A DNA stretch of 64,000 nt from a virus. Shown here one piece after another: positions 9,870-64,000 of this stretch; positions within the stretch are counted from its first letter, which is position 1, and every line of letters begins with the position of its first letter. The translations under genes were made by a program, and so were the position numbers. The stretch lies in the IMG/VR virus record IMGVR_UViG_3300037553_000311, positions 28,685-92,684 of that record; one strand, written 5' to 3'. The notes below the pieces were generated by a model. The model was not told the origin of the DNA. It did no database searches and worked only from the letters and a program-made list of their open reading frames with translations.

Positions 9870-9904
9870 CTCCATAGCATACCTATCATGGGTATGCTAT
9901 GGAG
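9870..9904. terminator. CATAGCATACC palindromic terminator-family hairpin
   Basis: ctccatagcatacc-loop-ggtatgctatggag after the capsid gene. Confidence 0.8.
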
Positions 9905-9979
9905 GTCTTAGTGTACTTGATTGATAGATACAGCTTACGCCTTATACTAGTGATGGTAGTGATACTCGAATATAGCAAA

Positions 9980-10135
9980 TATGCACTTTGAAACTCAAAT
10001 CGTTATAGAACCGCATGTAGTGATTTGAAAATAGGCTAAAAAGAGCTTCCACGTATATCCCTACGTGAAGGTCATATTTGGGCATATTTGGATTTACTAC
10101 GTACGGTTCTATAGTGGGTGAAAATGGTGTATTTG
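9980..10135. repeat. Imperfect long inverted repeat made of two TACGTG-element arms
   Basis: Left arm tatagaaccgcatgtagt...cttccacgta is an imperfect reverse complement of right arm tacgtgaagg...tacggttctata. The right arm is nearly identical to 51588-51672. Confidence 0.75.
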
Positions 10136-10282
10136 AGTTACTTATTATCTTATCTGAAATATCCTGGGATTTTGAGATAGATGATCTATTAGTAGCTTAT
10201 TATTTCAGATACTATCTACTATTGAAACTGTGTAATAATATTATGCTAGTATATATAGTAGTAATCTAAATCAGTCACTATT

Positions 10283-10305
10283 TCAGGTATATATCACTAT
10301 AGTAG
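10283..10305 (+). promoter_or_regulatory. Putative early promoter
   Basis: tcaggtatatatcactatagtag. Confidence 0.7.
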
Positions 10306-10440
10306 AAGGTATCAGATAATACTTGATACCTCCCACTGATCTTTGATTAGTAGAAGATATCAGATAATACTTGATACCTCCCACTGATCTAGCGATTAGT
10401 AGAAGGTATCAGATATAACCAGATGTACTTACTGATCTTA
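10301..10440 (+). repeat. Three tandem copies of the about 47-bp hairpin leader unit
   Basis: agtagaaggtatcagataatacttgatacctcccactgatct..gatt repeated; the third copy is degenerate. Confidence 0.85.
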
Positions 10441-10518
10441 GATGAGATAACGTATAGATTAATCTATACGTACACTAAAAGTCAGATATCTGACATGATA
10501 GCCTTAGGAGGGTAAGTT

Positions 10519-11655
10519 ATGAAAGTGAGTAATGAAGTAATGAATATCGATGGTAATGATGGATGTGATTTTGATGAGTTCTACGCAGTAGCTACTGACT
10601 CTAGTGGTAATACCATATGTGTTGGCGTTATCAAAACAGAAGGAGCTGGTGGTGATGATGCATTAGTAGTCAAGTATGATACTAATCTTAATGTACTAGC
10701 TAGGAAAATATATGGTGGTATTAATTTGGATGAGTTCAGTGGGGTAGTTATAGATTCCAATAACAACATCATATGTGTTGGGAATACTTATAGTGAAGAT
10801 AGTGGTATTGATGAAGCACTAGTAGTCAAGTTCGATCCTAACCTTGACATAATTGCTAAGAAAGTATACGGTGGTAGTGGTATTGATAGGTTCTATGAAG
10901 TAGTTACTGATGATAATGATAATATCATATGTGTTGGACGTACTGTTTCAGAAGGATCTGGTGATTATGATGCACTAGTAGTAAAGTTTGATAATGACCT
11001 TAACATACTAGCTAAGAGGATATATGATGGAGCTGGTAATTACCGATTCTATGAAGTAGCTACTGACTCTAATGGTAATATCATATGTGCTGGACGTACT
11101 CAAACAGAAGGAGCTGATTCTGATGTTGCTCTAGTAGTCAAGTACGATCCTAACCTTGACATAATTGCTAAGAAAATATATGATGGTAGTGGTGCTGATG
11201 CATTTTATACAGTAGCTACTGACTCTAATGATAATATCATATGTATTGGATGGACTGTCTCAGAAGAAACTGATTCTGATGAAGCACTAGTAGTCAAGTT
11301 CGATACTAACCTTAACATATTGACTAAGAAGATATATGATGGTATTGATTGGTTCAATGGAGTAGCTATAGACTCTAATGATAATATCATATGTGTTGGA
11401 CGTACTGCTTCAGGTAGTACGTCAGGAACTGGTAACCATGACACATTAGTAGTCAAGTTCGATCCTAACCTTGACATAATTACTAAGAAATTACATAATG
11501 ATGCAATTATTGATAGGTTCTATGAAGTAGTTACTGATGATAATGATAATATTATCTGTGTTGGACGTACTGTTTCAGAAGGATCTGGTAGTTTCGATGC
11601 ATCAGTAGTCAAATTTGATCCTAATCTTAATATGCTAGTTAATAAGATACAGTAG
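10519..11655 (+). CDS. Beta-propeller repeat protein (paralog family)
   Basis: Seven about 55-aa repeats YGGxGxDxFxxVATDSNxNIICVGxTxSEGxxxxDALVVKFD. Confidence 0.85.
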   Translation: MKVSNEVMNIDGNDGCDFDEFYAVATDSSGNTICVGVIKTEGAGGDDALVVKYDTNLNVLARKIYGGINLDEFSGVVIDSNNNIICVGNTYSEDSGIDEALVVKFDPNLDIIAKKVYGGSGIDRFYEVVTDDNDNIICVGRTVSEGSGDYDALVVKFDNDLNILAKRIYDGAGNYRFYEVATDSNGNIICAGRTQTEGADSDVALVVKYDPNLDIIAKKIYDGSGADAFYTVATDSNDNIICIGWTVSEETDSDEALVVKFDTNLNILTKKIYDGIDWFNGVAIDSNDNIICVGRTASGSTSGTGNHDTLVVKFDPNLDIITKKLHNDAIIDRFYEVVTDDNDNIICVGRTVSEGSGSFDASVVKFDPNLNMLVNKIQ

Positions 11656-11672
11656 TTGGATGTGATCTAAAT

Positions 11673-11720
11673 ATACATCATAGCATACCTATTACGGGTA
11701 TGCTATGATGTATTATTTTT
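11673..11720 (+). terminator. CATAGCATACC hairpin plus T tract
   Basis: Perfect stem followed by a T run. Confidence 0.8.
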
Positions 11721-11790
11721 TATGCACTCTCAGCATGAGCAATAAGTATCTACTACTCATAATAGTGTGATCTATTAGTAGCTTACTATT

Positions 11791-11813
11791 TGAGGTATAT
11801 ATCATCATAGTAG
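11791..11813 (+). promoter_or_regulatory. Putative early promoter
   Basis: tgaggtatatatcatcatagtag. Confidence 0.6.
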
Positions 11814-11949
11814 AAGGTATCATATAATACTTGATGCATCTCTACTGATCTTCGATTAGTAAGTATATCAGATACTACTTTGATATACTACCTGATCTTC
11901 GATGAGATAAGCATATCAGATAAACGTCAAATACACGGAGGATATCATA

Positions 11950-12543
11950 ATGATGACAGATGACACTACGATTGATAATGTAGGTAAGGTCGGAGCGATT
12001 GTTTGGGATGATGAATTATTATCATCTAGTGAAGTAGCTAGTAAATTATCAATCACTAAGAAGTATCTACAAAAGCTATATAGTTCAGGATGTAACACTG
12101 AAGCTAAATTACGACAGTGGAAGAGATCTCAGGGTAATAAAGAAGATATCATCATATATAATACTACCAATGGTGAACTATCTCTATCTGAGATAATAGA
12201 TAAGCATCATTATGTAATCGACCGTGTGATACTACTAAAACGTATCGATGATTATGGTGAAGATAGTGAAGCTATCTGGTTACCAGTAAATCATGTTCAA
12301 TTCAAACGATGCTTATCTGAGTTCGGAATCGAATACGTATCTCATACGTCGAATTACCAGGTGATACGAGATGTAAAATTCGATCGAACTAATCACTGTG
12401 CTAGAGTCTATGGGTTCAGATATACATGTGAACATTATAATGATTGTCAAGAATACCGACTAGTGAATAAAACACATCATCCACGTTACGTTAAGGATAA
12501 ATGTTTCGTGAATAGTGAGTTAGAAGTTAATATGACATCTTGA
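11950..12543 (+). CDS. Hypothetical protein with Cys/His-rich C-terminus
   Basis: GGAGG RBS; lies downstream of a promoter/leader module. Confidence 0.75.
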   Translation: MMTDDTTIDNVGKVGAIVWDDELLSSSEVASKLSITKKYLQKLYSSGCNTEAKLRQWKRSQGNKEDIIIYNTTNGELSLSEIIDKHHYVIDRVILLKRIDDYGEDSEAIWLPVNHVQFKRCLSEFGIEYVSHTSNYQVIRDVKFDRTNHCARVYGFRYTCEHYNDCQEYRLVNKTHHPRYVKDKCFVNSELEVNMTS

Positions 12544-12635
12544 TAAATGTCAATCACCCACCTACGCATATGACATGCGTAGGTGGGTATAAATCATTTG
12601 TAGTATAAATTACAACTATATTAGAGGATAGTATA

Positions 12636-12968
12636 ATGCAGGTAATCAACATGACACCATATGTAATCAGTATATTGAATTCAGATAGCATGGTAATAAC
12701 TAAGCTCAAACCATCAGGTAATACAGTAAGATTAGTCAGTACCACTAGTCGTATGGATGTTGTATATTCTGGTAATATTCCTATACCACTGACAGCTACA
12801 GTATTTGGTGAACCTGAAGGCTTACCAAATACTGTAGCTGGTATAGTGTATATAGTCGATGCTTCTGTGAAAGATAAGTATCCAGAAAGAGATGATCTAG
12901 TAACACCAAATGAACCAGTGCGTAATAGACTAGGTAATATCATCGGGTACTGTAGTCTACGTATCTAA
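12636..12968 (+). CDS. Hypothetical protein, homolog of 39793-40119
   Basis: INMTPY/VNLTSH...PSG...LP....G..YIV...DLV.P..R...G.I.G pattern shared with 39793-40119; GAGG RBS. Confidence 0.75.
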   Translation: MQVINMTPYVISILNSDSMVITKLKPSGNTVRLVSTTSRMDVVYSGNIPIPLTATVFGEPEGLPNTVAGIVYIVDASVKDKYPERDDLVTPNEPVRNRLGNIIGYCSLRI

Positions 12969-14075: not shown

Positions 14076-14085
14076 TATAGGATAT

Positions 14086-14227
14086 TAAGAGTGGTTCTTA
14101 GTATCTAAGTAGTACCTAGTCTTTAGTTCCTAGGTTGAAAAGAACGATGAGTTAGTGCGTAAACTTACCAGTACAACTACTGGGCTGATAACGCATACAA
14201 GTACCTTAGGAGGGTATGAATATGAAA
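14086..14227 (+). repeat. Conserved about 140-bp structured leader B, copy 1
   Basis: Near-identical to 39661-39804 and 43964-44101. Confidence 0.9.
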
Positions 14228-14443
14228 TATCAAATCAAGATAGAAACTGGCAATGACGTGATCGACATCAATATTGAGATGAGTTTAAAAGAAGCAATCG
14301 CCCTATCACGGGAATCTGAAGCGGTTATATACCGCTTCTGCAAAGAGTCTGATATCAAGATTACCGACATCGGTGAGCTCTTCAGTACTGCCATGTCGAA
14401 ACTGAAGGAACGCATGAAGCGTTCCTCCTCCTCCAAAGAGTAG
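14216..14443 (+). CDS. Small hypothetical cassette protein (true start probably 14222)
   Basis: Follows CCTTAGGAGGG; followed by a strong hairpin at 14449-14486. Confidence 0.75.
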   Translation: MNMKYQIKIETGNDVIDINIEMSLKEAIALSRESEAVIYRFCKESDIKITDIGELFSTAMSKLKERMKRSSSSKE

Positions 14444-14676
14444 TACCTCCCCCCAACTTATCTAGTAGTATTAGATAAGTTGGGGGTTACTACTTTATTA
14501 TTTTTTTATAATAACTATTCATAGCTACTAGACTAGGTTATATAGTGAAATTATTTATCATAGAACCTCATAATCTTATAGATCAGGTAGTATATCGAGT
14601 AGTGTCTGATATGCTATCTAATCACTAGATCAGGTGTCTGTTTTTTGTAATCTAATAATACACGGAGAATGTAATC

Positions 14677-16026
14677 ATGTCGCTACTAACTAGTCTAAAT
14701 AATAAAGATCTATCTCTAGGTAGATTTAGCCTTAACACTGGAACTCATTTTGATATAGCTACTGGTAAGTTCATCCCAGGTAAGGTGAAAAATAAATCCA
14801 CTATGATACTCAATGGTGGATTAGCTATGACTAACGCTATCACTGGTAGAGAACAAACATTTAAGTCATCTGTAGCTATAGGGTATTTTGTTAGAGCTAT
14901 CAAGAACTACGAGAAATCTATTGGTGTAGTATATGATTCAGAGATATCCATAGCTGGAGTCGAACGAGTTATCCAATTAGGTGGAGCTGATCCGTTACCT
15001 AACGATCCGTTGTATGATCGCATTGAACTTTTCGATAAGACTCATGCTGACTTAGGTCAAGTATTTAAAGTAGTGCAAGATATAGCACGTAATAAAGAAA
15101 AGCATCGTAAAGATCTCATAGAAGAGACACCATTTATAGATCGTCACGGTAAGTTCTTAAAGGCATGGCGACCTACTTTAGTATTGATTGATAGCTTCTC
15201 AGCAGGTGAATTCACTAAGCAAGCTGAAGTATTTGAACAATATACAGTAGGTGATGCTAAAACTAATACAGTATATATGGGTGACGGTAATGCTAAAACT
15301 CAGTTCATGAGTCAGCTACCAGCATTAGCAGCTAAAGGTATCTACTTTATATTGACAGCCCATATAGGTGATAAGATCAAGATGGACCCATATGCTGCTA
15401 GTAATAAAGACTTACCACATATGAGAGGATCAGATCATATCAAGCGAGTAGGTACACAATTCACATTCCAGTCTAATAATCTACTAGAGACTAGAAAGGT
15501 AGGTATACTCCAAGATACTAATAAGAAATGTCAATACCCTCACGATTCAGGTTCACCTGTTGAGCTACAAGAGATAATTTCTATAATATGTCGTTGTAAG
15601 AATAATGTATCTGGCTCTATCGTACATCATATCAGTTCTCAGTATTATGGGATACAGGAGTACTTGGAATACTTTAATCTCATCAAGAATAGTAAGACGT
15701 CATTAATGTCAGGTACTCTCACGTACAAGTTAGGATTTGGTGATTGGGAATTTAACCGTAAGAATATTAGACAGCTCATTAAAGATGATTATGAGTTTCG
15801 TAGGACATTAGAGATACTAGGACAGTTTTTATATATACGTAATAACTGGAACTTACCTGAAGTATCATCGATTGGATATGTTGAGTTCTGTAAGAAGCTT
15901 ACAGAGGCTAATAGTAAATCATCTGATATAATTAACAGTACTGGAATCTGGTCATTTAATGCAGATAAACAAGACCGTAGTTATATGTCTATATTAGACA
16001 TAGTAGCTCTGATCAATCAAAAATAA
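14677..16026 (+). CDS. uvsX: RecA/UvsX-like recombinase (phiKZ-type)
   Basis: Walker A GREQTFKS, YDSEIS, Walker B LIDSFS, FILTAH and KNN. Confidence 0.8.
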   Translation: MSLLTSLNNKDLSLGRFSLNTGTHFDIATGKFIPGKVKNKSTMILNGGLAMTNAITGREQTFKSSVAIGYFVRAIKNYEKSIGVVYDSEISIAGVERVIQLGGADPLPNDPLYDRIELFDKTHADLGQVFKVVQDIARNKEKHRKDLIEETPFIDRHGKFLKAWRPTLVLIDSFSAGEFTKQAEVFEQYTVGDAKTNTVYMGDGNAKTQFMSQLPALAAKGIYFILTAHIGDKIKMDPYAASNKDLPHMRGSDHIKRVGTQFTFQSNNLLETRKVGILQDTNKKCQYPHDSGSPVELQEIISIICRCKNNVSGSIVHHISSQYYGIQEYLEYFNLIKNSKTSLMSGTLTYKLGFGDWEFNRKNIRQLIKDDYEFRRTLEILGQFLYIRNNWNLPEVSSIGYVEFCKKLTEANSKSSDIINSTGIWSFNADKQDRSYMSILDIVALINQK

Positions 16027-16038: not shown

Positions 16039-17898
16039 ATGTTCATATTGCAGAATAATATCCCACTGACTAAAGTTGGGTCAGTATATAAGTATAATTT
16101 AGGATTTGAGACATTAGTAGTAACTGATCCATCATTAGTGATTGATAGATTGAACTACAGAATAGATCGGACTATCGGTCTGAGTCGTAGTTATGATCAC
16201 ATGATGAACCTTAATATATCAGCTAAGGTATCTATCACATCCGATCCATTTGAATATACATGTACTAGTGATACTACCAGATTATTAGCTATCGAACAGA
16301 TAGTCTCTCATGATGGTGAGATCATAGATATCGCATCTAACGTAGGTACTGTAGAGTATCACACATATAGTATCAAGTCGAATGATATATATGGTAGTGA
16401 AATAGCTGGAGCACTTATCAATGTCACTGTACCAGAAGACGCTACAGATATCATATTGACAGTGACATCTACTCTGACTAATGATACAGGTACTACTGAA
16501 CATGTCACATATCTATCTACAGGTGAGGTAGCTACTGGTACTGGAGGTACTGGGGCTACTGGAGCTACTGGAGCTACTGGAGCCGATGGGAGAGATGGAA
16601 TAGATGGAATAGATGGAATAGATGGAATAGATGGAGTCGATGGGAGAGATGGAGTCGATGGTGCTGATGGTGCTGATGGAATAGATGGAATAGGTGGAGT
16701 GGGAGCATTACCACCGACTGCACCATTACTAGATATCCCATTCAAGATTAATATGGATACTTCCCAAGGTAATATAGTAACTAATTATATCAGAAATTCA
16801 CCAGCTACTCACATTGACCGGTATGGTATGATGATAAGTAGTGATGTAAATACACCAAGATTTACTAAAAATGGGATGATGCGTGAAGGTGTCGGTACTA
16901 ACTATTTTCTTAATAGTAACTCACTTAACGCATATACACTAACTAACGCTACTCAGTCAATCGGCTATGATAGTGTATTAGCTATAGATGTAACTAACGT
17001 AGATAAAGACGGACAATCACCTTGGACATTAGATGCTGATACTACATTACCTATCAGTGATCATACTGATGTGACATATAGTGTCAGATTACGTACAAGT
17101 GATCCATTATCTGTAGAGATGCAGATATTAGATGATGCCGGTGTAGTACTAGCTTCATCTATAATCACTACTAGTGATACGACCGAATTATATACAGTAT
17201 CAGCAGATATATCTAATATATCATCAGGTACTGTATCAGTGAAGCTCATTCCAGATAGTAATTCATCAGTATCTCGATTAGTAGTAGCTACATCTCAAGT
17301 GGAACCATTACCATTTGTATCTAGTTTCATACTTACTACTGATACACACATGACTCGTGAAATGGAATCGATCGTTATCAGTTATGATGATAATTTCCCT
17401 AGTAATGATCATGGTGTCACTGTACTCCTCGATGTATATATTAGAGGTACGTTACCATCACTAGATTCATGCTTCACATCAGGTAGTCTATCTATGTATA
17501 TATCAGATCATGGTAGTAGTGTTCCTGTAGCTAAAGCTGCCATATCGGAAACTGATAGTACAGGTACATATCCTATTAATAATAAACTTAGAATGGGAGT
17601 AGTATATGATCCAGATAATAATCTACTACAGTTATATGTAGATGGTGTAATTGTCGATACTACAAACATCACAGGTGATACTGATGTACCATTAGGTTCT
17701 GGGATGTCTCTTAGTGATTTCTTTACTCAGGTCTATGATGGTAGTTATACTGATGATACATCTCCAGTACTATTACAGGGTAATGTTGACTTTCAATCAG
17801 CATTACTTATGATAGGTTCAGAGTTTACATTTATGGAATTTAGTAACTTAAGAGTAATATCTGAAGTATGTAGTGAAGTACAGATGATGAATTTATAA
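16039..17898 (+). CDS. Collagen-repeat tail fibre or head fibre-like protein with carbohydrate-binding/LamG-like C-terminus
   Basis: G-X-Y repeats at about 16535-16705; PRF....G...EG..TN and QVE....SSFI.T...TR fibre motifs; LQLYVDG. Confidence 0.7.
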   Translation: MFILQNNIPLTKVGSVYKYNLGFETLVVTDPSLVIDRLNYRIDRTIGLSRSYDHMMNLNISAKVSITSDPFEYTCTSDTTRLLAIEQIVSHDGEIIDIASNVGTVEYHTYSIKSNDIYGSEIAGALINVTVPEDATDIILTVTSTLTNDTGTTEHVTYLSTGEVATGTGGTGATGATGATGADGRDGIDGIDGIDGIDGVDGRDGVDGADGADGIDGIGGVGALPPTAPLLDIPFKINMDTSQGNIVTNYIRNSPATHIDRYGMMISSDVNTPRFTKNGMMREGVGTNYFLNSNSLNAYTLTNATQSIGYDSVLAIDVTNVDKDGQSPWTLDADTTLPISDHTDVTYSVRLRTSDPLSVEMQILDDAGVVLASSIITTSDTTELYTVSADISNISSGTVSVKLIPDSNSSVSRLVVATSQVEPLPFVSSFILTTDTHMTREMESIVISYDDNFPSNDHGVTVLLDVYIRGTLPSLDSCFTSGSLSMYISDHGSSVPVAKAAISETDSTGTYPINNKLRMGVVYDPDNNLLQLYVDGVIVDTTNITGDTDVPLGSGMSLSDFFTQVYDGSYTDDTSPVLLQGNVDFQSALLMIGSEFTFMEFSNLRVISEVCSEVQMMNL

Positions 17899-24723: not shown

Positions 24724-24758
24724 CATCCATAGCATACCTATCTGGTATGCTATGGATG
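24724..24758. terminator. CATAGCATACC hairpin between convergent genes
   Basis: catccatagcatacc-tatct-ggtatgctatggatg. Confidence 0.8.
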
Positions 24759-26086: not shown

Positions 26087-26109
26087 TCAGGTATATATCA
26101 CTATAGTAG
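26087..26109 (+). promoter_or_regulatory. Putative early promoter of the chimallin operon
   Basis: tcaggtatatatcactatagtag followed by leader hairpin units. Confidence 0.7.
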
Positions 26110-26249
26110 ATATACATCAGATACTACTTTGATGTACCTCCACTGATCTAGCGATTAGTAGATATACATCAGATACTACTTTGATGCACATTTATCTTAA
26201 CCAAGTACATGGTATGACATCATGTACACATATTAAATAGGAGATCATA

Positions 26250-28146: not shown

Positions 28147-28165
28147 TCATCCTAAGTCTATCATC

Positions 28166-28199
28166 CTCCATAGCATACCTATCTAGGTATGCTATGGAG
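28166..28199. terminator. CATAGCATACC hairpin
   Basis: Perfect stem after the chimallin candidate. Confidence 0.8.
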
Positions 28200-28325
28200 C
28201 ATTTAGTGTGTCATGTAGCTTCTCTTTTTATGCACTCTTAGGAGTAGCAATAAGTATCTACTACTCCTAAGAGTGTAGTTCATCAGTAGCTTACTATTTC
28301 AGGAGGAATGTGTCCTCACTACATC

Positions 28326-28348
28326 TCAGGTATATATTACCATAGTAG
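28326..28348 (+). promoter_or_regulatory. Putative early promoter
   Basis: tcaggtaTATATTACcatagtag-type motif. Confidence 0.7.
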
Positions 28349-28462
28349 ATGTACATCAGATACTACTTGATGTACATCTACTGATCTAGTAATGAGATAA
28401 CGTATAGAATAATCTATACACATGCTAAAAGTCAGATATCTGACATGATACCTTAGGAGGGT

Positions 28463-44735: not shown

Positions 44736-44838
44736 AGATACATCAGATACAACCAGATGTACCTCTACTGATCTCTGATTAGTAAGCATATCAGATACTA
44801 TATATTAAATACACTACATTCCTTTAGGAGGGAAACTT

Positions 44839-45488: not shown

Positions 45489-45890
45489 ATGAATACAGTA
45501 ATACCTACATTAAAGACAGAAGTCAGTTATCTGACTAGTCCGATTGATATCGTGAAGCATGTATTACAACATTACTTTCATGCTCCTAAGAGTATCAATG
45601 ATACATTCGCTGATAGTGCAATATCTTTTCGTCATGATGATGCTACATCTGGTGCTGATCCAGCTGCACTGACACTGAAAGTCACTAATGTACTCACTGA
45701 TACGTTCTCTAAGTATTTTCCATCAGCTACTACTATCGATGTAGATGTGAATTATATTCGAATAGATGATGTCAGATATGATATCGTATTAGATATCATA
45801 GTAGTGATAGATGGAGTACCATATACATTTGAAGAAAGCTACACTACTGATGATGAAGGACATCTGACATATAAGTATAAAGGTGAGTGA
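45489..45890 (+). CDS. Hypothetical protein
   Basis: GGAG RBS; overlaps the ligase start. Confidence 0.7.
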   Translation: MNTVIPTLKTEVSYLTSPIDIVKHVLQHYFHAPKSINDTFADSAISFRHDDATSGADPAALTLKVTNVLTDTFSKYFPSATTIDVDVNYIRIDDVRYDIVLDIIVVIDGVPYTFEESYTTDDEGHLTYKYKGE

Positions 45891-47853
45891 TATGGATAAA
45901 GCTAAGCTAGATATATTAGTACATGATCTCAAGTTACATAATCATAGATATTATAATCTCAATGCTCCCATCATCAGTGATGTCGAATATGACAGACTAT
46001 ACTCTATATTTTTAGAGTATAAAGCTAAGTATCCAGATATAGAAGATCCGATAGGATCACCTAGTGGTGATATCATACATAAGAATAAGATGTTATCTAT
46101 CTTATCTACTACTGATAAGAGTGAGTTATCTGATAGATTATTGAAGATGATAGGTAACTCACAGTTTGATATCATAGCTGATTACAAAGCTGATGGTCTA
46201 GCACTAGAGTTAGTATATGGTAAGGATAATCTCTTATCAGGTGCATCTACTAGAGGTGATGGTATCGTAGGTGATGATGTATTATCTAATGCAAGATATA
46301 TACTCAATGTAGTACCAAAGATGAGTACATGTTGCATATATGGTGAAGTAGTATTATCAAAGAAGAACTTTAAGATAGTCAATGATTACAAACGTAAAAT
46401 AGGTGATGCTGCATTTACTAATGCAAGGAATGCTGCATCTGGTATATTGAGGTCATCTAGATATCCTAATAATGTAGTGGAGTTATTGACATTCATCCCA
46501 TATGGTACAGATCTAGATAAACCCACTCATACTGATAAGTTAGTAGCATTGGCAGATGCTGGTTTCATAACACAACCACATATCACCTGTACTAGCACAG
46601 ATGATATCATTAGAGCATGTGATGATATATCACGTATTCGTAACGACATAGGTTACGATATAGATGGTATCGTATTTAAAGTAAATGACGTAGCACTACA
46701 ACAAGAATTATGTAGTGGTAATAAGCACCCTAATCATATGGTGGCATATAAGTTTCCAGCTAGTAACACTATCACTACACTGAATGAGGTAGTATTCCAA
46801 GTAGGTAGGACTGGTAGGATCTCACCAGTAGGTATAGTGACTCCAGTCACTATCAGTGGTATATTGATCAAGCGAGTATCATTACACAATATCAATGATA
46901 TCAATGATAAAGATCTCAAGATAGGTGATAAAGTAATATTAGAACGTGCAGGTGATGTCATACCTGCTATAATAGAATCATTAGTAGAAGAACGCACTGG
47001 GGATGAGATTGATATCGTATTCCCTACAACCTGTCCTACATGTCACAGTGAAGTAGCATTTGATAATACTCATTACACATGCACTAATGACGACTGCTTA
47101 GCTAAGTTATCTGGTAATCTCATGTATGCAATTGGTAGGAAAGCATTCAATATGAAAGGTATAGGTCCAAAGGTATGTGATAAGTTAGTAGCATGTGGTC
47201 TCATATCAGATGTCAGTGATCTATTCACTTTAGATACCGATATAGCTAAACGTGATACTTTCATGAATGCATTGGGTATATCTATCGGTAGGGTAAATAA
47301 GTTACTCATCACAATAGATAACTCTAGGGTGATCACTTTTGCTAAATTCATTAAAGCATTGAGTATCCCTATGATTAGTGACGGATTAGCTAATTCGATT
47401 GCTAACAAATTCACTAGTATAGATAATCTACTATCATTAGATCCGATCACGATAGCTAATGAGCTTTCATATGTCCCAAATATAGGTAGGAATACTGTAG
47501 ATGCTGTAGCTGATTATTTTGATCCCAGTAATACGGGTAGATATAGTCGCATCCTAGTTGAGAAACTAATAGCTAATGGTGTGATTGTACAAGATCATCT
47601 AGATGTATCAGTATCTAATAAGAATGTAGTATTTGTGATCACTGGTAAATTTGATAATACCTCTAGAGTAGAGTTAGCTAAGCGTATTGATGAAAGTCAA
47701 ATCGGTATAGTGGAACGACGTTTAACTGGTAAGACTAAGTACTTAGTTGTAGGAGATAGTGCTGGAAAAAGTAAGGTGGATAAGGCAGTAAAAATGAATA
47801 TACCTATGATAACCTTAGATGAACTTAATAAAATGATACAAGGAGCGATATGA
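45883..47853 (+). CDS. ligA: NAD-dependent DNA ligase
   Basis: YY...P.ISD.EYD, KADG, TRGDG.VG, RNAASG, DGIVFK, AYKF, VGRTG, RAGDVIP, zinc finger, HhH and BRCT. Confidence 0.97.
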   Translation: MSDMDKAKLDILVHDLKLHNHRYYNLNAPIISDVEYDRLYSIFLEYKAKYPDIEDPIGSPSGDIIHKNKMLSILSTTDKSELSDRLLKMIGNSQFDIIADYKADGLALELVYGKDNLLSGASTRGDGIVGDDVLSNARYILNVVPKMSTCCIYGEVVLSKKNFKIVNDYKRKIGDAAFTNARNAASGILRSSRYPNNVVELLTFIPYGTDLDKPTHTDKLVALADAGFITQPHITCTSTDDIIRACDDISRIRNDIGYDIDGIVFKVNDVALQQELCSGNKHPNHMVAYKFPASNTITTLNEVVFQVGRTGRISPVGIVTPVTISGILIKRVSLHNINDINDKDLKIGDKVILERAGDVIPAIIESLVEERTGDEIDIVFPTTCPTCHSEVAFDNTHYTCTNDDCLAKLSGNLMYAIGRKAFNMKGIGPKVCDKLVACGLISDVSDLFTLDTDIAKRDTFMNALGISIGRVNKLLITIDNSRVITFAKFIKALSIPMISDGLANSIANKFTSIDNLLSLDPITIANELSYVPNIGRNTVDAVADYFDPSNTGRYSRILVEKLIANGVIVQDHLDVSVSNKNVVFVITGKFDNTSRVELAKRIDESQIGIVERRLTGKTKYLVVGDSAGKSKVDKAVKMNIPMITLDELNKMIQGAI

Positions 47854-48769: not shown

Positions 48770-49873
48770 ATGAGTGGCTTGAAGATCATACATACTTCAG
48801 ATTGGCATTTTGGACATGGGAGAGTAGATACAGATGATACTATCTCAGATATTAGAAAGTACTTATTCCCTAAGTTAGTAGATGCTGATATATTAGTTAT
48901 AGCTGGGGATATATTTGATAACAGTATCAGTATAAACTCTAAAGATGCAGCTAGTGTATTAGCATTCTTTGTAGATGTGTTTTATAAATGCTATGAGCAT
49001 AATGTCATACTTCGCATATTGTTAGGTACATTCAGTCATGATAGGAATCAGATCAAATCTATTGAACGCTTATACAGTAGGTTTAATATACCATTAGATT
49101 TTAGATACATTGATACTATCGATGTAGAGTATATAGCTAAGGTAGATACTTCATTTCTATACTTACCTGATAACTTACCATATAAGACTAAGCATGAAGT
49201 ATTTGAACAAGTAGATAAGTTACTCATAGGAGCTGATATATCTAAAGTAGATTATGTAATCAACCATGGTGAGTTTAACCATGCTACATATGGATATATC
49301 AATGACAATGCGTATGATGTATCTGACTTTAAAGATATATGTAAGTATCTGGTACTTTCTGGACATATACACAATAAGAGTAAACGAGGTAATGTCCTCT
49401 ACGCTGGTAGTATCAATAGACTAGCGCATAATGAAGAATCAGCTAAAGGCTTCTGGTACATAGAAGGTACTGATACTAAATTCATTACTAATACGTCAGC
49501 TACACAGTTTATAACTGAGACATATGAAGGTACTGATTTAGATACCTTACTCAAGTATCATGATGAATTGATAGCGTCTAAGTTTGATCCTAATCGTAGA
49601 GGATATCTGAGACTCATCATAGATGACGTACATATCAGACAAGCTGTACGAAAGTATCATGATAAGCAAGAGTTTAACGTAGTACTGACATTTAAGATCA
49701 ATAAGAAGCAGAGTGATCAATTCGATCTCAATATCAAAGCTGAGCGTACAGAGATCCTAGTAGCACCTTCTGAAGCTACTATATCCACTATCGTATCTGA
49801 ACACCTAATTAAGACTAAAGCTACTAATCTACCACTCGATACTATCAAATCAATCATCTTCGATCATACATGA
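48770..49873 (+). CDS. sbcD: SbcD/Mre11-like metallophosphoesterase nuclease
   Basis: SDWH, AGDIFD, GT.SHD, HG, GHIH and YAGS. Confidence 0.9.
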   Translation: MSGLKIIHTSDWHFGHGRVDTDDTISDIRKYLFPKLVDADILVIAGDIFDNSISINSKDAASVLAFFVDVFYKCYEHNVILRILLGTFSHDRNQIKSIERLYSRFNIPLDFRYIDTIDVEYIAKVDTSFLYLPDNLPYKTKHEVFEQVDKLLIGADISKVDYVINHGEFNHATYGYINDNAYDVSDFKDICKYLVLSGHIHNKSKRGNVLYAGSINRLAHNEESAKGFWYIEGTDTKFITNTSATQFITETYEGTDLDTLLKYHDELIASKFDPNRRGYLRLIIDDVHIRQAVRKYHDKQEFNVVLTFKINKKQSDQFDLNIKAERTEILVAPSEATISTIVSEHLIKTKATNLPLDTIKSIIFDHT

Positions 49874-51587: not shown

Positions 51588-51672
51588 ACGTATATCCCTA
51601 CGTGAAGGTCATATTTGAGCATATTTGGATTTACTACGTACGGTTCTATAGTGGGTGAAAATGGTGTATTTG
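51588..51672 (+). repeat. TACGTG element
   Basis: About 85 bp, near-identical to 10051-10135. Confidence 0.9.
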
Positions 51673-51747
51673 CATTATCTGATATGTTATCTAATCTTAT
51701 AGTTCAGATGACATATCACCTGAACTAGTCGATCAACTCTCACTATC

Positions 51748-51770: not shown

Positions 51771-51902
51771 GTTATACATTAAATCGAAGATCAGTAGCAT
51801 GTCAAGTAGTATCTGATATGCTACCTAATCACTAGATCAGTAGGAGGTATCAAGTAGTATCTGATACCTTCTATTAATCACTAAATCAGTAGGAGATGTA
51901 AT

Positions 51903-53838: not shown

Positions 53839-54972
53839 ATGATTAATAATAAACTAGACGATAGTGTATTGATAAGTATCTATAATGATGACATTGATAA
53901 TCGGTTCAATATGGCAACTGTAGATTCTAATAATAACATTATCTGCATTGGACGTACTGGTACTGGGAAACGTAGAGATAGTGTCACATTGATAGTAAAG
54001 TTCGATAGTGACCTTAATGTAGTATCTAAGACTACATGTGGTGATCATAAGGACTTTTTCATAGGAGTAGTTACAGACTCTAATGATAATATTATCTGCG
54101 TTGGTCGCACTACCTCAGATGTAACTTGTGGTGGTGATATACTAATGATGAAGTTCGATAGTGATCTGATGATACTCAATATCAACATATATGATGATAA
54201 TGATATTGATTGGTTCAATGCAGTGACTATAGATGCTAATGATAATATCATCTGCGTTGGACGTACTATCATCTCAGAAGTTTATACTGCATTAGTAGTC
54301 AAGTATGATAGTGACTTTAATGTAGTAGCTAGAAAGACATATAGTGGAGATGATAGTTGGGGTTACTTCAATCAAGCAGTTATGGACTCTACTGGTAATA
54401 TTATCTGTATCGGTAGTACTGATGAAGGTAGTGCGTCAGGGATTAGATGTAGTGATACTCTGATGGTCAAGTATGATAGTGACCTTAATGTAGTAGTTAA
54501 TGTAGTATACGGTGGGACTGATGACGGTAGTTGCGATAGGTTCAGTGAAGTAGCGATTGATTCAAATGATGATATCATCTGCATTGGATATATTAGCTCA
54601 GAAGATTCTGATAGTAGTGATGCACTAATGGTGAAGTTTAGTGGTACGGATCTTAGCTTGATCGTTAAGAAAACATATGGTGACGATTATGGCTATTTCC
54701 ATGGAGTAGCTACATGTACTAATAACGATATCATCTGCATTGGTAGTACTTTCTCAGATAATGATTGGTATACATTAGTAGTGAAGTTAGATAATAGTCT
54801 TAATGTACTAGATAGGAAGATATATGATGGCGATGATGAATTCAGTGAAGTAGCTACTGATACTAATGATGATATCATATGCATTGGACGTACTACCTCA
54901 GAACTACCTGGTAGTTCTGAATATCCTAATCGTGTAGATGCATTAATAGTGAAGTATGATAAATGGGGATGA
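53839..54972 (+). CDS. Beta-propeller repeat protein (paralog family)
   Basis: Seven repeats; C-terminal segment identical to that of 29901-30605. Confidence 0.85.
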   Translation: MINNKLDDSVLISIYNDDIDNRFNMATVDSNNNIICIGRTGTGKRRDSVTLIVKFDSDLNVVSKTTCGDHKDFFIGVVTDSNDNIICVGRTTSDVTCGGDILMMKFDSDLMILNINIYDDNDIDWFNAVTIDANDNIICVGRTIISEVYTALVVKYDSDFNVVARKTYSGDDSWGYFNQAVMDSTGNIICIGSTDEGSASGIRCSDTLMVKYDSDLNVVVNVVYGGTDDGSCDRFSEVAIDSNDDIICIGYISSEDSDSSDALMVKFSGTDLSLIVKKTYGDDYGYFHGVATCTNNDIICIGSTFSDNDWYTLVVKLDNSLNVLDRKIYDGDDEFSEVATDTNDDIICIGRTTSELPGSSEYPNRVDALIVKYDKWG

Positions 54973-54975
54973 AGT

Positions 54976-56058
54976 ATGATAGATATTGTGAGTAGTTATG
55001 ACATCAGTAGGGATATCGGGAGTCATGTCAAATTAGAGACTGACTTATGGATATATCCAGATATGGATGACATGACATGGGGTATGGATAATCCAGGAAT
55101 AAGGCTACTGTCTAATTGTGCTAATCGTATATCGCAAGGATCATATGTCATGCGCAGTGATGTGCAAATTATGAAGCTACATGGATTCATGTCAACTGGT
55201 AGATATTGTGAGATCATACAGTTTAAATTAGGATCAGTACCGATCCCTGTAATCATTAGGATAGAATCTGATACCTCATCAGTCATGAAGGAGTACCTGA
55301 TCTATGATAATATCTTAAAGGTGAGATCTACCATATTCAACATGTCAATTGATGGATCGTCCATATTCCATGACATATCGTCAATTGCATTATTACGTCA
55401 AGAGCCATATATATCTGGTAATCTTACACACTTATTACTAGGTAGTGAATCGAGTACTATATCGCTCATACCTAATGATCTGATGATGGCTAATCTCACT
55501 GACGCTATAATAAATGCAATATATGATACACTCATAAACTTTGAATTAGTGCGTAATTTCATCTCTACTGTATTTGATAACTTATCATCTAAAGTGATAT
55601 TTCAACTATATAGTGATCTGACTTACAGTAACTATAGGAGGATGGATAATATAAGTCCACATGTAGTACCGTGTAGTGACATATGTGATGGTAATGTCGG
55701 TAGTATAAAACTATTATCTGATATGAGTAGATTAGCTAATATTACATTAGATACATTTGAACTAGAAGTACTCATCAAATCACATGGTGAGGTACTAGTA
55801 AATATACTCGATACATCCAGTCTAATCACTAGGTATAAGATACCAGATGACTCTGTAAATGATACATTATATTGGACATCGCTGAGTATACTCAATGAGC
55901 TATATCGTAATGATCTTACAGGTATCGCTACAGTCAATTTTAAGAAGCATTCTAATGATACATTAGTAATACATGCAATACATGATAATGGTACTGAGAT
56001 GCGATGGTCATATGATTTAATTATGCTATCGGTATTATCACCCATGATTCACATCTAA
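54976..56058 (+). CDS. Hypothetical protein
   Basis: 360-aa ORF with no recognisable motif. Confidence 0.65.
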   Translation: MIDIVSSYDISRDIGSHVKLETDLWIYPDMDDMTWGMDNPGIRLLSNCANRISQGSYVMRSDVQIMKLHGFMSTGRYCEIIQFKLGSVPIPVIIRIESDTSSVMKEYLIYDNILKVRSTIFNMSIDGSSIFHDISSIALLRQEPYISGNLTHLLLGSESSTISLIPNDLMMANLTDAIINAIYDTLINFELVRNFISTVFDNLSSKVIFQLYSDLTYSNYRRMDNISPHVVPCSDICDGNVGSIKLLSDMSRLANITLDTFELEVLIKSHGEVLVNILDTSSLITRYKIPDDSVNDTLYWTSLSILNELYRNDLTGIATVNFKKHSNDTLVIHAIHDNGTEMRWSYDLIMLSVLSPMIHI

Positions 56059-56132
56059 TCATAGGGTGAATCATAGGTGATGATGCTATTATTATCACTC
56101 ATGATTCACATCTAATCAGGAGAATAATCGAT

Positions 56133-56762
56133 ATGAGTAAATATGCACAGTATCAAATGGTATACAATCTATTCGATTCACATATCATCCTATCGCAACT
56201 CAATGGTGATTCTATCATCGAGCGATACAATAGTAGTAACCGCATCGTAAATAGTAATCTAGTACGTGATGCTAAACTGTATGATATGACGGTAACGTCA
56301 GATATTATATTATGTATCGGTAGTCATGGGAGTACTGGGGTGATCATGACGTACGATTTCAATCTAGAACAGGATGATTGGTATAAATCATTAGATACTA
56401 TATATACTAGAATAGATTCATTATCATCTGGTTATTTCGTGTCTAATGATAGTAAGATAGCTATATTAGATAAAGACCTATGTGAGGTCAGAAATAATCA
56501 ACGAGATACTCACATACATGATGCTATGTCATTACAGGATGGGTCAATTATCACTATAGAATCTAAATCAGATGATAAGCTCATCTATGTCAATAAGTAC
56601 TCAGATGAGCTAGTTCGTATTAAGACTATAAGTTTTGGATCTAGTAAGTCGTATGCATTACATGATATCTATGCTGATGATGATAATGTATACATCAATG
56701 GAACAGATGCAGGTATCGAGTTTACACTCAAGTTATCACATGATTTAATAGTGAAATCGTGA
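56133..56762 (+). CDS. Hypothetical protein, possibly a highly divergent propeller
   Basis: ILCIG, YDFNL and YINGT remnants; AGGAG RBS. Confidence 0.6.
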   Translation: MSKYAQYQMVYNLFDSHIILSQLNGDSIIERYNSSNRIVNSNLVRDAKLYDMTVTSDIILCIGSHGSTGVIMTYDFNLEQDDWYKSLDTIYTRIDSLSSGYFVSNDSKIAILDKDLCEVRNNQRDTHIHDAMSLQDGSIITIESKSDDKLIYVNKYSDELVRIKTISFGSSKSYALHDIYADDDNVYINGTDAGIEFTLKLSHDLIVKS

Positions 56763-56771
56763 CATATATCA

Positions 56772-56827
56772 CCTCATAGCATACCAGATAGGTATGCTAT
56801 GAGGAATGTGTTCATATCTTTTTATTA
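56772..56827 (+). terminator. CATAGCATACC hairpin
   Basis: Loop agata, the reverse complement of the tatct loop at 24724. Confidence 0.75.
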
Positions 56828-56874: not shown

Positions 56875-56897
56875 TCAGGTATATATTACTATAGTAG
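56875..56897 (+). promoter_or_regulatory. Putative early promoter
   Basis: tcaggtatatattactatagtag. Confidence 0.75.
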
Positions 56898-57001
56898 AGT
56901 ATCAAGTATTATCCGATACTCTACATGATCTAGTGATTAGTAAGTAAGTACAATCAGATACTACATATCAAACACACTAAATTCCTTTAGGAGGGAAGCA
57001 A

Positions 57002-59608: not shown

Positions 59609-59702
59609 TATATAATCATAGCACACCTACACATGGTAGGTATGCTATGATTATTTCACACAGATGGTTAGTTTTCTACTTATTCTTTTTTATGGAGTAG
59701 CT

Positions 59703-60527: not shown

Positions 60528-60618
60528 TTATAATTCATATCGCACTATTAGCATGAGTAGATGTCTTTTACTCATGCTAATAGTGAGGTGTGATCTCATA
60601 ATACACGGAGAATATATC

Positions 60619-61402: not shown

Positions 61403-61467
61403 CTTTTATATGATATACTATCTCATCAGTCTCATAAGATATCTATTATATTCACATGTTGTCTATT

Positions 61468-61490
61468 TCAGGTATATATCACTATAGTAG
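61468..61490 (+). promoter_or_regulatory. Putative early promoter of the nvRNAP beta gene
   Basis: tcaggtatatatcactatagtag. Confidence 0.7.
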
Positions 61491-61649
61491 AGATGCATCA
61501 GATAATACTTGATGTATCTCTACATGATCTAGCGATTAGTAGAAGGTATCAGATAATACTTGATACCTACCACTGATCTAGTGATTAGTAAGTAAGTACA
61601 ATCAGATACTACATATCAAACACACTAAATTCCTTTAGGAGGGAAACTT

Positions 61650-63776
61650 ATGAGTAACGCCACTAACATATGTTCAAATATGAACATACCACCAGAATTA
61701 GTAGGAATGACATCATTATTATCACCAGGGATGGCTTCAAATTCAGGTGGTAGATTAGACATGTACTCTAGTCATCTGAGTGCATGGCGTGTACCTAAAG
61801 ATGGAGATACTCCCATCATATTCTCACCATTTGAGTCACTCTTTATAGATTACACATTCGACACTACTACTAGAGATAATGCTATCAAAGTAGTACAAGT
61901 CATACCTAAGTACGATATCAAATATGGTGTAATCACACTAGGGAATAATCCTACTAGCACTGTAATATATCGAGATCTTGAAACAGGTGAGATGTCATAT
62001 TTTAACCTACATAAGTATACATGCCTTACTAATGGGTTCGGGTATAAGAATAATATCAAATGTAATCTGATGCCAGGGACAGTACTAGATCCAGATGATG
62101 CAGTATATGATTCAGATGCTATATCTGATAGTGAATATCGTATGGGAGTGAATGCTAATGTAGCATTCATGTCTACACTAGATGGGACTGAGGATGCTAT
62201 CTGTATATCAGAAGAGATCAGTGAGAAACTTACCCCTACTGCTATAGATACGATCACTATCAAGGTCAATCTAGATCAATATCCACTAAACTTATATGGT
62301 AATGATTCTGATTATAAGATCCTACCAGATATAGGAGATGTAGTAAATGAAGATGGTATCATCTTTGGATCAAGGATAGTGAATGATATATCAGCTATCA
62401 CTGATCTAGATAGTGAAAAGCTATCCACTGTCAACTACTTATTTGATCAGTTGAAATATACTCACCCAGGAGCTACAGTAATTGACATCGAGGTATATCT
62501 AGATAGTAAAGTGAAACTACCACCGAGTATATATGATCAATTGATAAAGTATCGTAATGCTAAGTTAGAGTATTATTCTGCTATTGATCATATATATGAA
62601 GATAATAAGAATATCCCTATCTCAAATAAGCTAAACACTCTAATCAAAAGAGCTAAAGGAAGGTTATTAGCAGCAAAGAAGAATGTCAAAGATATAGGTA
62701 AACGTAACAAGGTGAGACTGGTAGATAGAATTGAACCTGTTGCACTTAAAGTGGAGATCACAGTAAAGTATGATGTATTAGTAAATAAAGGACATAAGAG
62801 TACAGGTAGAGATGGAGCTAAAGGAGTCATTGTAGTTACTAAACCTAGATCTGAGATGCCTACTGATGAGTATGGTGTAGTAGCTGATATATGTATCGAT
62901 CCTCTATCAGTACATAAGCGTACTAATCTATCTCAAATCTATGAGCAATATATCGGGAGATTGTTATTATTCATTACACGGAGTCTATCAGAGTTACCAG
63001 ATACAGCTTCACGTTTTAATAAGATAGTAGAGGTACTCTATGATATCAATCCCATATACTCTAACATAGTCAATAGTAATCATAAGAGTGAACGATTACG
63101 TGAAGAGTTTGTACAAGCATGTATGGAAGATGGTATCCGTGTATGTATTCCACCATCTATGAAAGGATTAGATTCAGATCTGATTACTAGGTTAGATGAT
63201 AAGTATAAGATTCCAGTATCACGAGTATCATTCATTCATACATTAGCAGATGGAACAAAGAAGAAGATCACTACTAAAGAACCAATACTCATTGGTCCTA
63301 AGTATATCTACCTACTAAATAAGTTTCCAAGACCGATAGCTAATGGATATAGCTATGTAAATAAGTATCACTTTCCTGTCAGTGCTAGATCAGGACCAGT
63401 GAATCGTAACAAGGATGTATTAGGTACGACTAGTATCAGATTAGGTGAAGCTGAATTTAAGATACTCACTACTGCTGTAGGATCTGATGTGGTGTTGAGA
63501 TTAAAGGCATTATTTGGTAACTCAGTGATAGGTCCTAAAGCTATGATCAATGCATTATTATCTACTAAGTATCCAAGTAGATTAAAGTGTGTAAATCTTA
63601 CAGATGAGGAACTTAAGGATGATCTCAGATCTACTCATATATTGAAGTCATATACTAACGCTATGGGTATAGATCTCCAGAATGTATTGATATCGGATAA
63701 GCATGCTGATGAGATATATGAGGATCTAGATACATATTTCACCGGTAATGATATCCCTATCGATCTAGACGTATAA
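61650..63776 (+). CDS. Non-virion RNA polymerase beta subunit, C-terminal part (phiKZ gp71-73-like)
   Basis: GVNANVAFMS, EDAICISE, G.K.TGR.G.KGVI, R.N..Q.YE and RLGEAE. Confidence 0.92.
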   Translation: MSNATNICSNMNIPPELVGMTSLLSPGMASNSGGRLDMYSSHLSAWRVPKDGDTPIIFSPFESLFIDYTFDTTTRDNAIKVVQVIPKYDIKYGVITLGNNPTSTVIYRDLETGEMSYFNLHKYTCLTNGFGYKNNIKCNLMPGTVLDPDDAVYDSDAISDSEYRMGVNANVAFMSTLDGTEDAICISEEISEKLTPTAIDTITIKVNLDQYPLNLYGNDSDYKILPDIGDVVNEDGIIFGSRIVNDISAITDLDSEKLSTVNYLFDQLKYTHPGATVIDIEVYLDSKVKLPPSIYDQLIKYRNAKLEYYSAIDHIYEDNKNIPISNKLNTLIKRAKGRLLAAKKNVKDIGKRNKVRLVDRIEPVALKVEITVKYDVLVNKGHKSTGRDGAKGVIVVTKPRSEMPTDEYGVVADICIDPLSVHKRTNLSQIYEQYIGRLLLFITRSLSELPDTASRFNKIVEVLYDINPIYSNIVNSNHKSERLREEFVQACMEDGIRVCIPPSMKGLDSDLITRLDDKYKIPVSRVSFIHTLADGTKKKITTKEPILIGPKYIYLLNKFPRPIANGYSYVNKYHFPVSARSGPVNRNKDVLGTTSIRLGEAEFKILTTAVGSDVVLRLKALFGNSVIGPKAMINALLSTKYPSRLKCVNLTDEELKDDLRSTHILKSYTNAMGIDLQNVLISDKHADEIYEDLDTYFTGNDIPIDLDV

Positions 63777-63785
63777 CATAAACTC

Positions 63786-63848
63786 ATCCATAGCATACCT
63801 ATCTGGTATGCTATGGATCTATATGTAGGGTACGGTTTCACTTTTTTA
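63786..63848 (+). terminator. CATAGCATACC hairpin plus T tract
   Basis: Nearly the same as the 24724 copy. Confidence 0.8.
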
Positions 63849-63915
63849 TGCACTCTCAGCATGAGTAATAAGTATCTACTACTCCCAAGAGTGAATCCAT
63901 CAGTAGCTTACTATT

Positions 63916-63938
63916 TCAGGTATATATCACTATAGTAG
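63916..63938 (+). promoter_or_regulatory. Putative early promoter followed by leader units to the window end
   Basis: tcaggtatatatcactatagtag. Confidence 0.7.
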
Positions 63939-64000
63939 AAGGTATCAGATACTACTTGATACCTCCCACTGATCTTCGATTAGTAGAAGGTATCAGATAC

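Follow-up and report, generated by a model that had tools for sequence, protein, structure and literature searches.

The stretch of DNA analysed here (64,000 nt, hereafter the window) covers the final 64 kb of one virus contig of 92,684 bp, IMG/VR record IMGVR_UViG_3300037553_000311 (positions 28,685 to 92,684 of that record); negative coordinates refer to contig sequence upstream of the window, in window numbering. The contig has a G+C content of 35% and comes from an uncultured giant phage of the phiKZ-like type, along which recurrent regulatory modules, the subject of this study, stand before accessory and core genes. PHROG and Pfam scans of the open reading frames (ORFs) identified a DnaB-like helicase, a UvsX-like recombinase, an SbcD-like nuclease, an NAD ligase and virion proteins, as well as two pieces of RNA polymerase beta/beta' (30901-32406 and 61650-63776). 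By tblastn, the gene at 30901-32406 resembles the non-virion polymerase beta' of phiKZ-like phages, e.g. PCH45 and Noxifer (about 25% identity), and megablast and blastn of the window found no DNA similarity to cultured phages.

About ten times, intergenic DNA follows the same order: a terminator, a palindrome (H2), a promoter, zero to three hairpin units, a leader and a strong ribosome site. Inspection of all intergenic regions of at least 90 nt showed that a second T-rich box (AGCTTCTCTTTTT) often lies between terminator and H2. Modules are 250-450 nt long, with the promoter following the terminator within 60-250 nt in about ten of them, and parts of the kit are also present in the 28.7 kb upstream of the window. 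A fixed order of recurrent motifs had been claimed by an earlier reading of the letters alone (the sequence-only reading), and it is real: all motifs quoted there are over-represented and strand-specific, and the order is present at 11673-11945, 28166-28465, 29601-29903, 30632-30900, 34444-34873 and 63786-64000. The quoted form of all parts is found at 28.2 and 29.6 kb only; the 63.8-kb module is alike but is truncated by the end of window and contig ahead of its ribosome site, those at 11.7 and 30.6 kb have a different ribosome site, and the one at 34.4 kb has a different terminator stem. Moreover, the T tract does not always directly follow the hairpin (exceptions at 9873, 28169 and 56775), the unit given as 47 bp measures 48-52 nt, and seven promoters have no unit at all.

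The promoter conforms to the consensus (c)tatTTCAGG-TATATATTAC-TATAGTAG, as at 28321-28348, and was found on the plus strand only, upstream of ORFs. Allowing up to two mismatches, its 18-mer TATATATTACTATAGTAG occurs 18 times in the window, always on the plus strand (0.20 in shuffles, with 0/100 reaching 18), and the whole 92.7-kb contig has 22 copies on the plus strand and 0 on the minus strand. The 18-mers start at 2170, 10288, 11796, 14058, 26092, 28331, 29721, 30751, 34689, 36690, 38637, 39635, 40247, 43936, 44718, 49881, 51753, 56880, 61473 and 63921. The genes behind the 20 window promoters are mostly non-syntenic with the nearest relative (13/20), the others being core genes (7/20). Early-promoter motifs have been published for phiKZ (TATATTAC) and 201phi2-1 (TTTRARR_BTATATTACDWHDGTG) (PMC7058600). 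Like the early promoters of phiKZ-like phages (PMC7598289, PMC8244752, PMC7058600), the window motif has the core TATATTAC, fits in the upstream TTTCAGG and the downstream ..GT. positions, is AT-rich and confined to a single strand, and lies upstream of presumed early operons. It is thus predicted to be a promoter of the phiKZ/201phi2-1 early type, i.e. of the virion RNA polymerase class. According to a review of jumbo-phage polymerases, the early operons of every jumbo phage encoding an RNA polymerase are preceded by a conserved AT-rich motif with its centre near -10. From this we infer both the early timing of the promoter units and their start: transcription would begin within TATAGTAG, so that the first stem-loop would lie at the extreme 5' end of the RNA. 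The 5' untranslated regions differ from those of phiKZ, which are mostly 31-40 nt long; here they span about 30 to 220 nt and up to three stem-loops, and about 100-220 nt where hairpin units or the leaders A or B (see below) occur. Searches of IMG/VR and metagenome contigs with the promoter 18-mer and 19-mer gave isolated matches only, a few of them upstream of genes in other giant-phage contigs and none with hairpin units.

At least four families of terminator stem were recognised, one of which is dominant. This family, T1, consists of the hairpin CATAGCATACC-loop-GGTATGCTATG, whose invariant stem has eight exact copies in the window against 0 expected (9873-9901 on the plus strand, 11679-11707, 24728-24754, 28169-28196, 29603-29631, 30634-30662, 56775-56801 and 63789-63815), and a further copy with one mismatch at 59617-59649. 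The copy at 11.7 kb folds into a stem of 18 bp (-26.5 kcal/mol, z -8.7), after which comes a U run, and T1 is predicted to be a strong intrinsic terminator of the textbook type. Its loops vary and are inverted between some copies (GATATCA/TGATATC; TATCT/AGATA); template switching at palindromes is known to give such inversions. The ribosome site CCTTAGGAGGG has seven exact copies and 11 with at most one mismatch, on the plus strand only. At 28451-28465 and other CCTTAGGAGGG sites, a CCTT preceding AGGAGGG is able to pair with the ribosome site (ACCUU/AGGGU), and the conserved context of these sites may thus partly mask it.

H2 is a bulged, imperfect palindrome of about 48 nt (ATGCACTCT..CATGAG..CTACTAC..AGAGTG) that lies between terminator and promoter on the plus strand at 28230-28277, with further copies at 11722-11768, 29647-29694, 30677-30725, 34548-34595, 36286-36333, 36623-36665, 39537-39584 and 63848-63896 and inverted or variant ones at 2128-2164 and 60542-60586; nhmmer finds about 22 copies in the contig. 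The 28.2-kb copy has a perfect 17-bp stem. A conserved RNA helix was ruled out, with consistent pairing limited to a 5-bp basal stem (ACTCT/AGAGT), and the conservation of H2 is mainly one of sequence, not of structure. Adjoining H2, and usually entered through it, is a non-coding element, E1, which measures about 300 nt, has two CCTACGTG boxes and is dispersed in both orientations: at 36340-36616, at -23981..-23770, -19100..-18774 (reverse) and -16325..-16014 of the contig, and partially at 373-464, 10051-10155 and 51588-51692. Between GTGCTA/TAGCAC arms, E1 has an internal segment of about 45 nt that is flipped in some copies relative to others, it has no Rfam match, and kinship with a TnpB-like element of the nearest relative (see below) was ruled out by comparison. 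A second, distinct hairpin unit (TCTGATGACATATTAGGCAT.ATTTGATATGTCATCTAAT) stands in two tandem copies between E1 and H2 at -23760..-23680 (about 4925-5005 of locus L051), and this pair is missing from the otherwise 98% identical module copy at 36.6 kb.

The hairpin units that follow the promoter are formed by a stem of up to 15 bp (TAGTAG-variable-loop-variable-CTACTG) and an 11-nt loop (AGATAATACTT or a variant). Using nhmmer, an array of three units of about 48 nt was located at 10299-10446 on the plus strand, starting at the promoter TAGTAG, and others at 11807-11906, 26103-26189, 28342-28396, 29732-29832, 30762-30850, 34700-34804, 36701-36755, 44729-44800, 61484-61588 and 63932-64000; the array at 56896-56940 has a flipped loop, and those at 14577-14636, 36789-36833 and 51782-51877 are inverted. 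The array starts exactly at the promoter TAGTAG in 18/22 cases. Over 35 units, 86.7% of the cells are paired, versus at most 43% in slid controls, seven of the 15 pairs have changed on both sides, and the arrays fold better than shuffles (z -6.6). Stem-loops at the 5' terminus are known to stabilise mRNA in bacteria, and by analogy our preferred reading is that the 5' hairpins would stabilise early mRNA.

Three leaders are shared, each by its own set of genes. Leader A (..GTCAGATATCTGACATGATACCTTAGGAGGGTATGAATATG) precedes propeller paralogs only, on the plus strand at 28397-28462, 10447-10518, 29833-29900 and 34805-34870, with more copies upstream in the contig; in the five leader-A cassettes the leaders are 90-98% identical, as against 72-80% for the coding parts. 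The structured leader B, about 140 nt in the alignment (plus strand, 14076-14215, 39653-39792 and 43954-44089), precedes three small ORFs that all start with MNMK (14216-14443, 39793-40119 and 44090-44494). BLASTP found no significant similarity among these three ORFs (best pair at E 0.065), which nonetheless have leader B, ribosome site and initial four codons in common, and the cassettes at 39.8 and 44.1 kb also have a common 3' flank (40125-40206 and 44506-44587, 89% identical). Leader C (..CAATCAGATACTACATATCAAACACACTAAATTCCTTTAGGAGGGAA) lies before three core genes on the plus strand (44783-44838, 56941-57001 and 61589-61649), and the regions 56892-56997 and 61537-61645 are 90% identical.

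For comparison, 14 related IMG/VR loci were obtained with a protein profile of beta', and the nearest contig available (G001, 149 kb) was compared as a whole; a single-protein scan of IMG/VR had found no relative. No relative above 61% identity was found for the beta' gene (contigs P0002-P0004 reach 58-61%), while the proteins of G001 are 30-50% identical, its beta' 45%. Over about 80 kb, 42 core genes stand in the same order in G001. Accessory ORFs interrupt 12/41 core junctions, and islands without a syntenic partner occupy seven junctions in the window: 10519-12943, 14216, 26250, 28463-30605, 32581-44494, 51903 and 53839-56762. The large islands lie at junctions that have a promoter in G001 too. 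On the plus strand at 28147-30900, an island of two propeller cassettes (28463-29578 and 29901-30605) separates the gene at 26575-28146 from beta' (30901-32406). This gene occupies the position of the shell gene, directly upstream of beta' in 12/14 relatives and 260 bp from it in G001, as opposed to 2.7 kb here, so that 28463-30605 sits between genes that are adjacent in those 12 relatives. In the 12-kb island at 32581-44732 (plus strand), an HNH/EndoVII-like gene (32581-34386) is accompanied by a row of eight promoter-gene(s)-terminator units, most of them propeller paralogs as judged from PHROG and SBBP repeat matches. The core genes that flank this island, at 30901 and 44839, have 2.7 kb between them in G001 and none in L021, where the homologue of 44839 directly follows beta'; 32581-44494 thus lies between genes that are neighbours in L021. 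Repeats here flank non-core genes between core blocks that are conserved in G001 and 13 other relatives.

At promoter junctions, accessory ORFs are over-represented (Fisher p 0.0016 with the phage's own promoters, 0.052 with those of G001 as an independent marker), as expected both from repeat-mediated insertion and from unit borders that merely tolerate insertions. In G001, 15 short promoters of the form aaATATATAT(C/T)AT share the strand of those described here, and 8/11 of its promoter-bearing collinear junctions also have a promoter in the window phage; the promoter sites at core junctions are therefore old. No hairpin units, H2, T1 or CCTTAGGAGGG site were found in 403 kb of relatives, which marks the long repeats as lineage-specific. 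Two 100% identical copies of a 1396-bp element occur in G001 (L043/L044, 27378-28773 and 45892-47287), each encoding a 422-aa protein whose N-terminus looks by eye like TnpB/OrfB of the IS605 type. The left end of this element lies in ATATATCAT, a promoter-like motif, at junctions that have promoter modules in the window phage.

The propeller paralogs number about a dozen (10519-11655, 28463-30605, 34871-38522, 40325-43788 and 53839-54972), with blades of 52-53 aa (156-159 nt) and SBBP beta-propeller matches. Some end in LTLADSN-type heptad repeats, and blade DNA is common to the paralogs in a patchwork fashion. Propeller genes are present elsewhere in the G001 genome, and none were found in three complete, more distant genomes. 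The gene at 32581-34386 encodes an accessory 601-aa zinc-finger protein with PHROG matches to Lar-like, endonuclease VII and HNH proteins; G001 lacks it, and the gene has its terminator and seven final codons in common with the neighbouring propeller gene.

Several marks of recombination are preserved within the contig. At 10202-10424 (plus strand), a 223-bp block matches -2606..-2384 with 98% identity; it consists of a promoter preceded by 75 nt of unique spacer, together with 2.5 hairpin units, and contains the longest exact repeat of the contig (136 bp). The two copies precede unrelated genes, the 75-nt spacer is outside any consensus, and both ends of the block lie in TATCAGATA, the hairpin loop word. 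At 36591-36758 (plus strand), a mosaic joint falls on the promoter, where the nearest neighbour switches exactly from -23.6 kb (36591-36689, 98% identical to -23701..-23603) to 61.5 kb (36680-36758, 96% identical to 61463-61542), and a 27-nt segment between TCAGG/TCAGA repeats in the -23.6-kb copy is missing at 36.6 kb. Two direct repeats on the plus strand (R1, 34367-34634; R2, 36105-36373; 94% identical) bracket exactly one promoter-leader-propeller cassette and start 20 nt inside two unrelated coding sequences, whose proteins both end in NHDEL. At the joint of the propeller gene and R2, only TCAA is common with the normal blade sequence, and this 4-nt overlap points to a microhomology joint inside a coding sequence. 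Likewise, a 234-bp direct repeat (29579-29809 and 30610-30840, 88%) brackets the cassette gene 29901-30605. In the five leader-A cassettes the nearest neighbour differs from segment to segment (pairwise-homoplasy-index-type test, 0.454 vs 0.561, 0/2000 permutations as low). Four or five of the 35 hairpin units combine 5' and 3' arms of different stem types, as expected from crossover in the conserved loop, and loops are inverted in two units.

We consider it probable that these modules are early units of the moron type, equipped with lineage-specific repeats, that have spread by duplication and ectopic recombination and are exchanged by the machinery of the phage itself. In the pathway that we infer, terminator, H2, virion-polymerase early promoter, zero to three stem-loops, a shared or unique leader and a strong ribosome site would delimit autonomous early units. 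The promoters at core junctions would be ancestral, while the long repeats, specific to the lineage, would have spread together with accessory units, above all the beta-propeller paralogs. The many repeats of 50-270 bp at 88-98% identity might then allow the phage machinery to add, delete, swap and homogenise units, with contributions from microhomology joints and from exchange within propeller genes. The repeated regulatory DNA has probably been copied and exchanged recently, as has been proposed and partly demonstrated for the promoter-early stem-loops (PeSLs) of T4-type phages.

The sequence-only reading had proposed modular expression units that frame variable genes between conserved core genes and repeats that double as recombination substrates. 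Collinearity with G001 and other relatives bears out the former, with the qualification that much of the variable content, accessory as it is, belongs to one paralog family carrying its own leader. The mosaic, chimeric and bracketing patterns are as expected of the latter, but exchange is not confined to regulatory repeats, given the 4-nt joint in coding sequence and the recombination of propeller genes among themselves. Of the encoded recombination genes it had named, homologues of UvsX (14677-16026, plus strand; PHROG 97, E 2e-26) and SbcD (48770-49873) are present, the latter and the NAD ligase (45883-47853) by matches cited jointly (PHROG 100 at E 2e-48 and PHROG 3869), while RuvC is represented by a weak match under the cut-off (1511-2074, Pfam RuvC E 0.003).

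Several points weigh against this probable history of units shuffled by the phage itself. At 45% identity in beta', the nearest relative compared is too distant for nucleotide-level indel breakpoints. The association of promoters with accessory genes is partly built in, each unit bringing its own promoter, and borders of transcription units may simply tolerate insertions. Strong constraint on a functional RNA could explain part of the high leader identity, and one cassette joint at least is placed outside the regulatory repeats, at a microhomology of 4 nt within a coding sequence. Finally, in a metagenome assembly with both ends in repeats and a longest exact repeat of 136 bp, cassette placement could in principle be an assembly error.

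Ordinary regulation combined with paralog duplication, in which one polymerase, one ribosome and co-duplicated upstream regions produce the likeness and the repeats are irrelevant to gene gain and loss, would account for a promoter that is of the family type and stands at the same junctions in G001, for leader A always preceding propeller paralogs, and for the tandem units at 28-31 kb, which resemble simple duplication. We regard it as unlikely, since the 98% identical block at 10202-10424 includes 75 nt of non-consensus spacer before a gene unrelated to that of its partner, leader B and a common 3' flank frame unrelated ORFs, and chimeric hairpins and segment-wise changes of neighbour point to exchange. 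A more elaborate mechanism, decidedly unlikely in our view, would make the cassettes self-propagating elements of a nucleus-forming lineage, excised as circles and re-inserted at hairpin or promoter repeats, perhaps via the HNH/EndoVII-like nuclease, with the covarying 5' stem-loops and their fixed 11-nt loop serving to bind a phage factor that would govern how early mRNAs are stabilised, exported or translated. It is very unlikely that hairpin units, H2 and E1 are selfish repeats akin to miniature inverted-repeat transposable elements (MITEs) or repetitive extragenic palindromes (REPs), which colonised intergenic DNA and are linked to cassettes incidentally: 18/22 arrays begin exactly at the promoter, the stems covary as expected of selected structure, the scanned ORFs yielded neither transposase nor recombinase, and E1 is unrelated to the G001 element. 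Such colonisation would suit the units and arrays that occur in both orientations, a few of them away from promoters (14577, 36789 and 51782; -16742 and -6656 in the contig), E1 copies in both orientations adjoining H2, and the two identical TnpB-like elements of G001 with their left end in a promoter-like motif.

The sequence-only reading had likened the system to an integron free of integrase. In 60 protein scans of 54 different ORFs, on a contig that is a partial genome, no tyrosine or serine recombinase was found; the integron likeness fails for want of an integrase, of attC/attI logic and of a common promoter, each cassette having its own promoter and terminator. An integron with promoterless, attC-ended cassettes was ruled out, every unit having its own promoter and the hairpins lying in the 5' leader. 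Conserved fixed-loop hairpins do flank cassettes, and the accessory HNH/EndoVII-like protein adjoins one, as might be expected if an unrecognised recombinase used folded hairpins as attC-like sites. However, the end points of exchange vary (a loop, a promoter, coding microhomology), which fits general recombination through repeat homology, propeller-gene homology and microhomology and not a site-specific process; together with the scans and the promoter in each cassette, this leaves an integron-like system exceedingly improbable. We also hold it highly improbable that chimeric joins at repeats have created an unreal cassette order. The contig ends in repeats on both sides and its exact repeats all stay below 140 bp, as an assembler k-mer limit would give, but the 42 core genes ordered as in G001 argue against gross misassembly, the repeats are diverged (88-98%) and not identical, and the motifs do not depend on the order of pieces.

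Among known systems, PeSLs and morons offer the right comparison, and integrons do not. PeSLs are composite terminator/early-promoter repeats that flank non-core genes between core blocks in T4-type phages and are believed to be used by the phage's own homologous recombination system when genes are inserted, deleted or swapped (Arbiol et al. 2010, PMC2839356; Comeau et al. 2014, PMC4122927). The modules described here resemble them as terminator and early-promoter composites around non-core genes in plastic regions, and the comparison holds on the features tested. They differ in a promoter of the virion RNA polymerase type, not sigma-70-like, and in their much greater length (250-450 nt), and they include an additional palindrome, arrays of 5' hairpins and leaders common to several units. 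The core evidence for PeSLs consists of breakpoints in close relatives and of mini-circles; here, mosaics within the contig point in the same direction as such breakpoints. As for morons, the window likewise contains stand-alone units between genes that are adjacent in relatives, but in tandem rows of up to eight, with near-identical regulatory DNA and in a lytic giant phage. Morons were reportedly described in lambdoid and other phages by Juhala et al. 2000 and Hendrix et al. 2000, as promoter-gene-terminator units inserted between genes adjacent in relatives. With integrons, the modules have in common the rows of small accessory units separated by imperfect palindromes; they differ by the absence of integrase, attI/attC and a common promoter, by a promoter and terminator in each unit and by varied joints. 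In comparison with REP- or MITE-like palindromes, inverted units or arrays are few here, no transposase was found among the scanned ORFs and most arrays are locked to a promoter.

Giant phages of the Chimallivirus type are described as conserved core blocks with variable accessory regions. In the searchable literature, we found no description of the route by which they gain and lose accessory genes, nor of PeSL-like cassettes in phiKZ-like phages. The contig suggests that the solution of T4-type phages, recombination between repeated terminator-promoter modules that keeps new genes insulated and expressed, also operates in a phiKZ-like lineage with its own RNA polymerase promoters. It also offers a compact set of candidate expression parts (early promoter, 5' stabilising hairpins, leaders and terminators) and flags a fast-expanding, presumably early-expressed beta-propeller family. 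Genes for host interaction or counter-defence often expand fast.

The gene at 26575-28146, next to the gene neighbourhood of the non-virion beta', is linked to the shell gene by position and not by sequence. No match to the shell protein chimallin was obtained by phmmer or a 9-sequence profile against PDB, by tblastn against cultured phages or in an ESM Atlas search, and hhalign against the Noxifer gene of equivalent position was negative. A 384-aa ORF at -27942..-26788 (L051 742-1896), preceded by an early promoter and two hairpin units, has a weak tubulin/FtsZ Pfam match (E 0.0016) and may encode a PhuZ-like protein. Together, the split multisubunit RNA polymerase genes, this tubulin-like match and the gene in shell position make a nucleus-forming lifestyle plausible. 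Rfam gave no match at the gathering score nor at E 0.1, and no tRNA genes were found. The tail-fibre-like gene at 16039-17898 contains a run of collagen-like 9-nt repeats (GGAxxxGAT) at 16551-16721. In G001, the beta' homologue (L015 10001-12020, i.e. G001 77701-79720) matches in two pieces (10001-11371 and 11844-12020) with about 470 nt between them, which could reflect an intron, an insertion or a split gene. Two stretches of the contig, -19331..-17638 and -17108..-15871 (1.7 and 1.2 kb), are without an ORF of at least 60 codons and contain tandem repeats, E1 copies and a promoterless hairpin array; they could represent an origin, a packaging region or a region of RNA genes.

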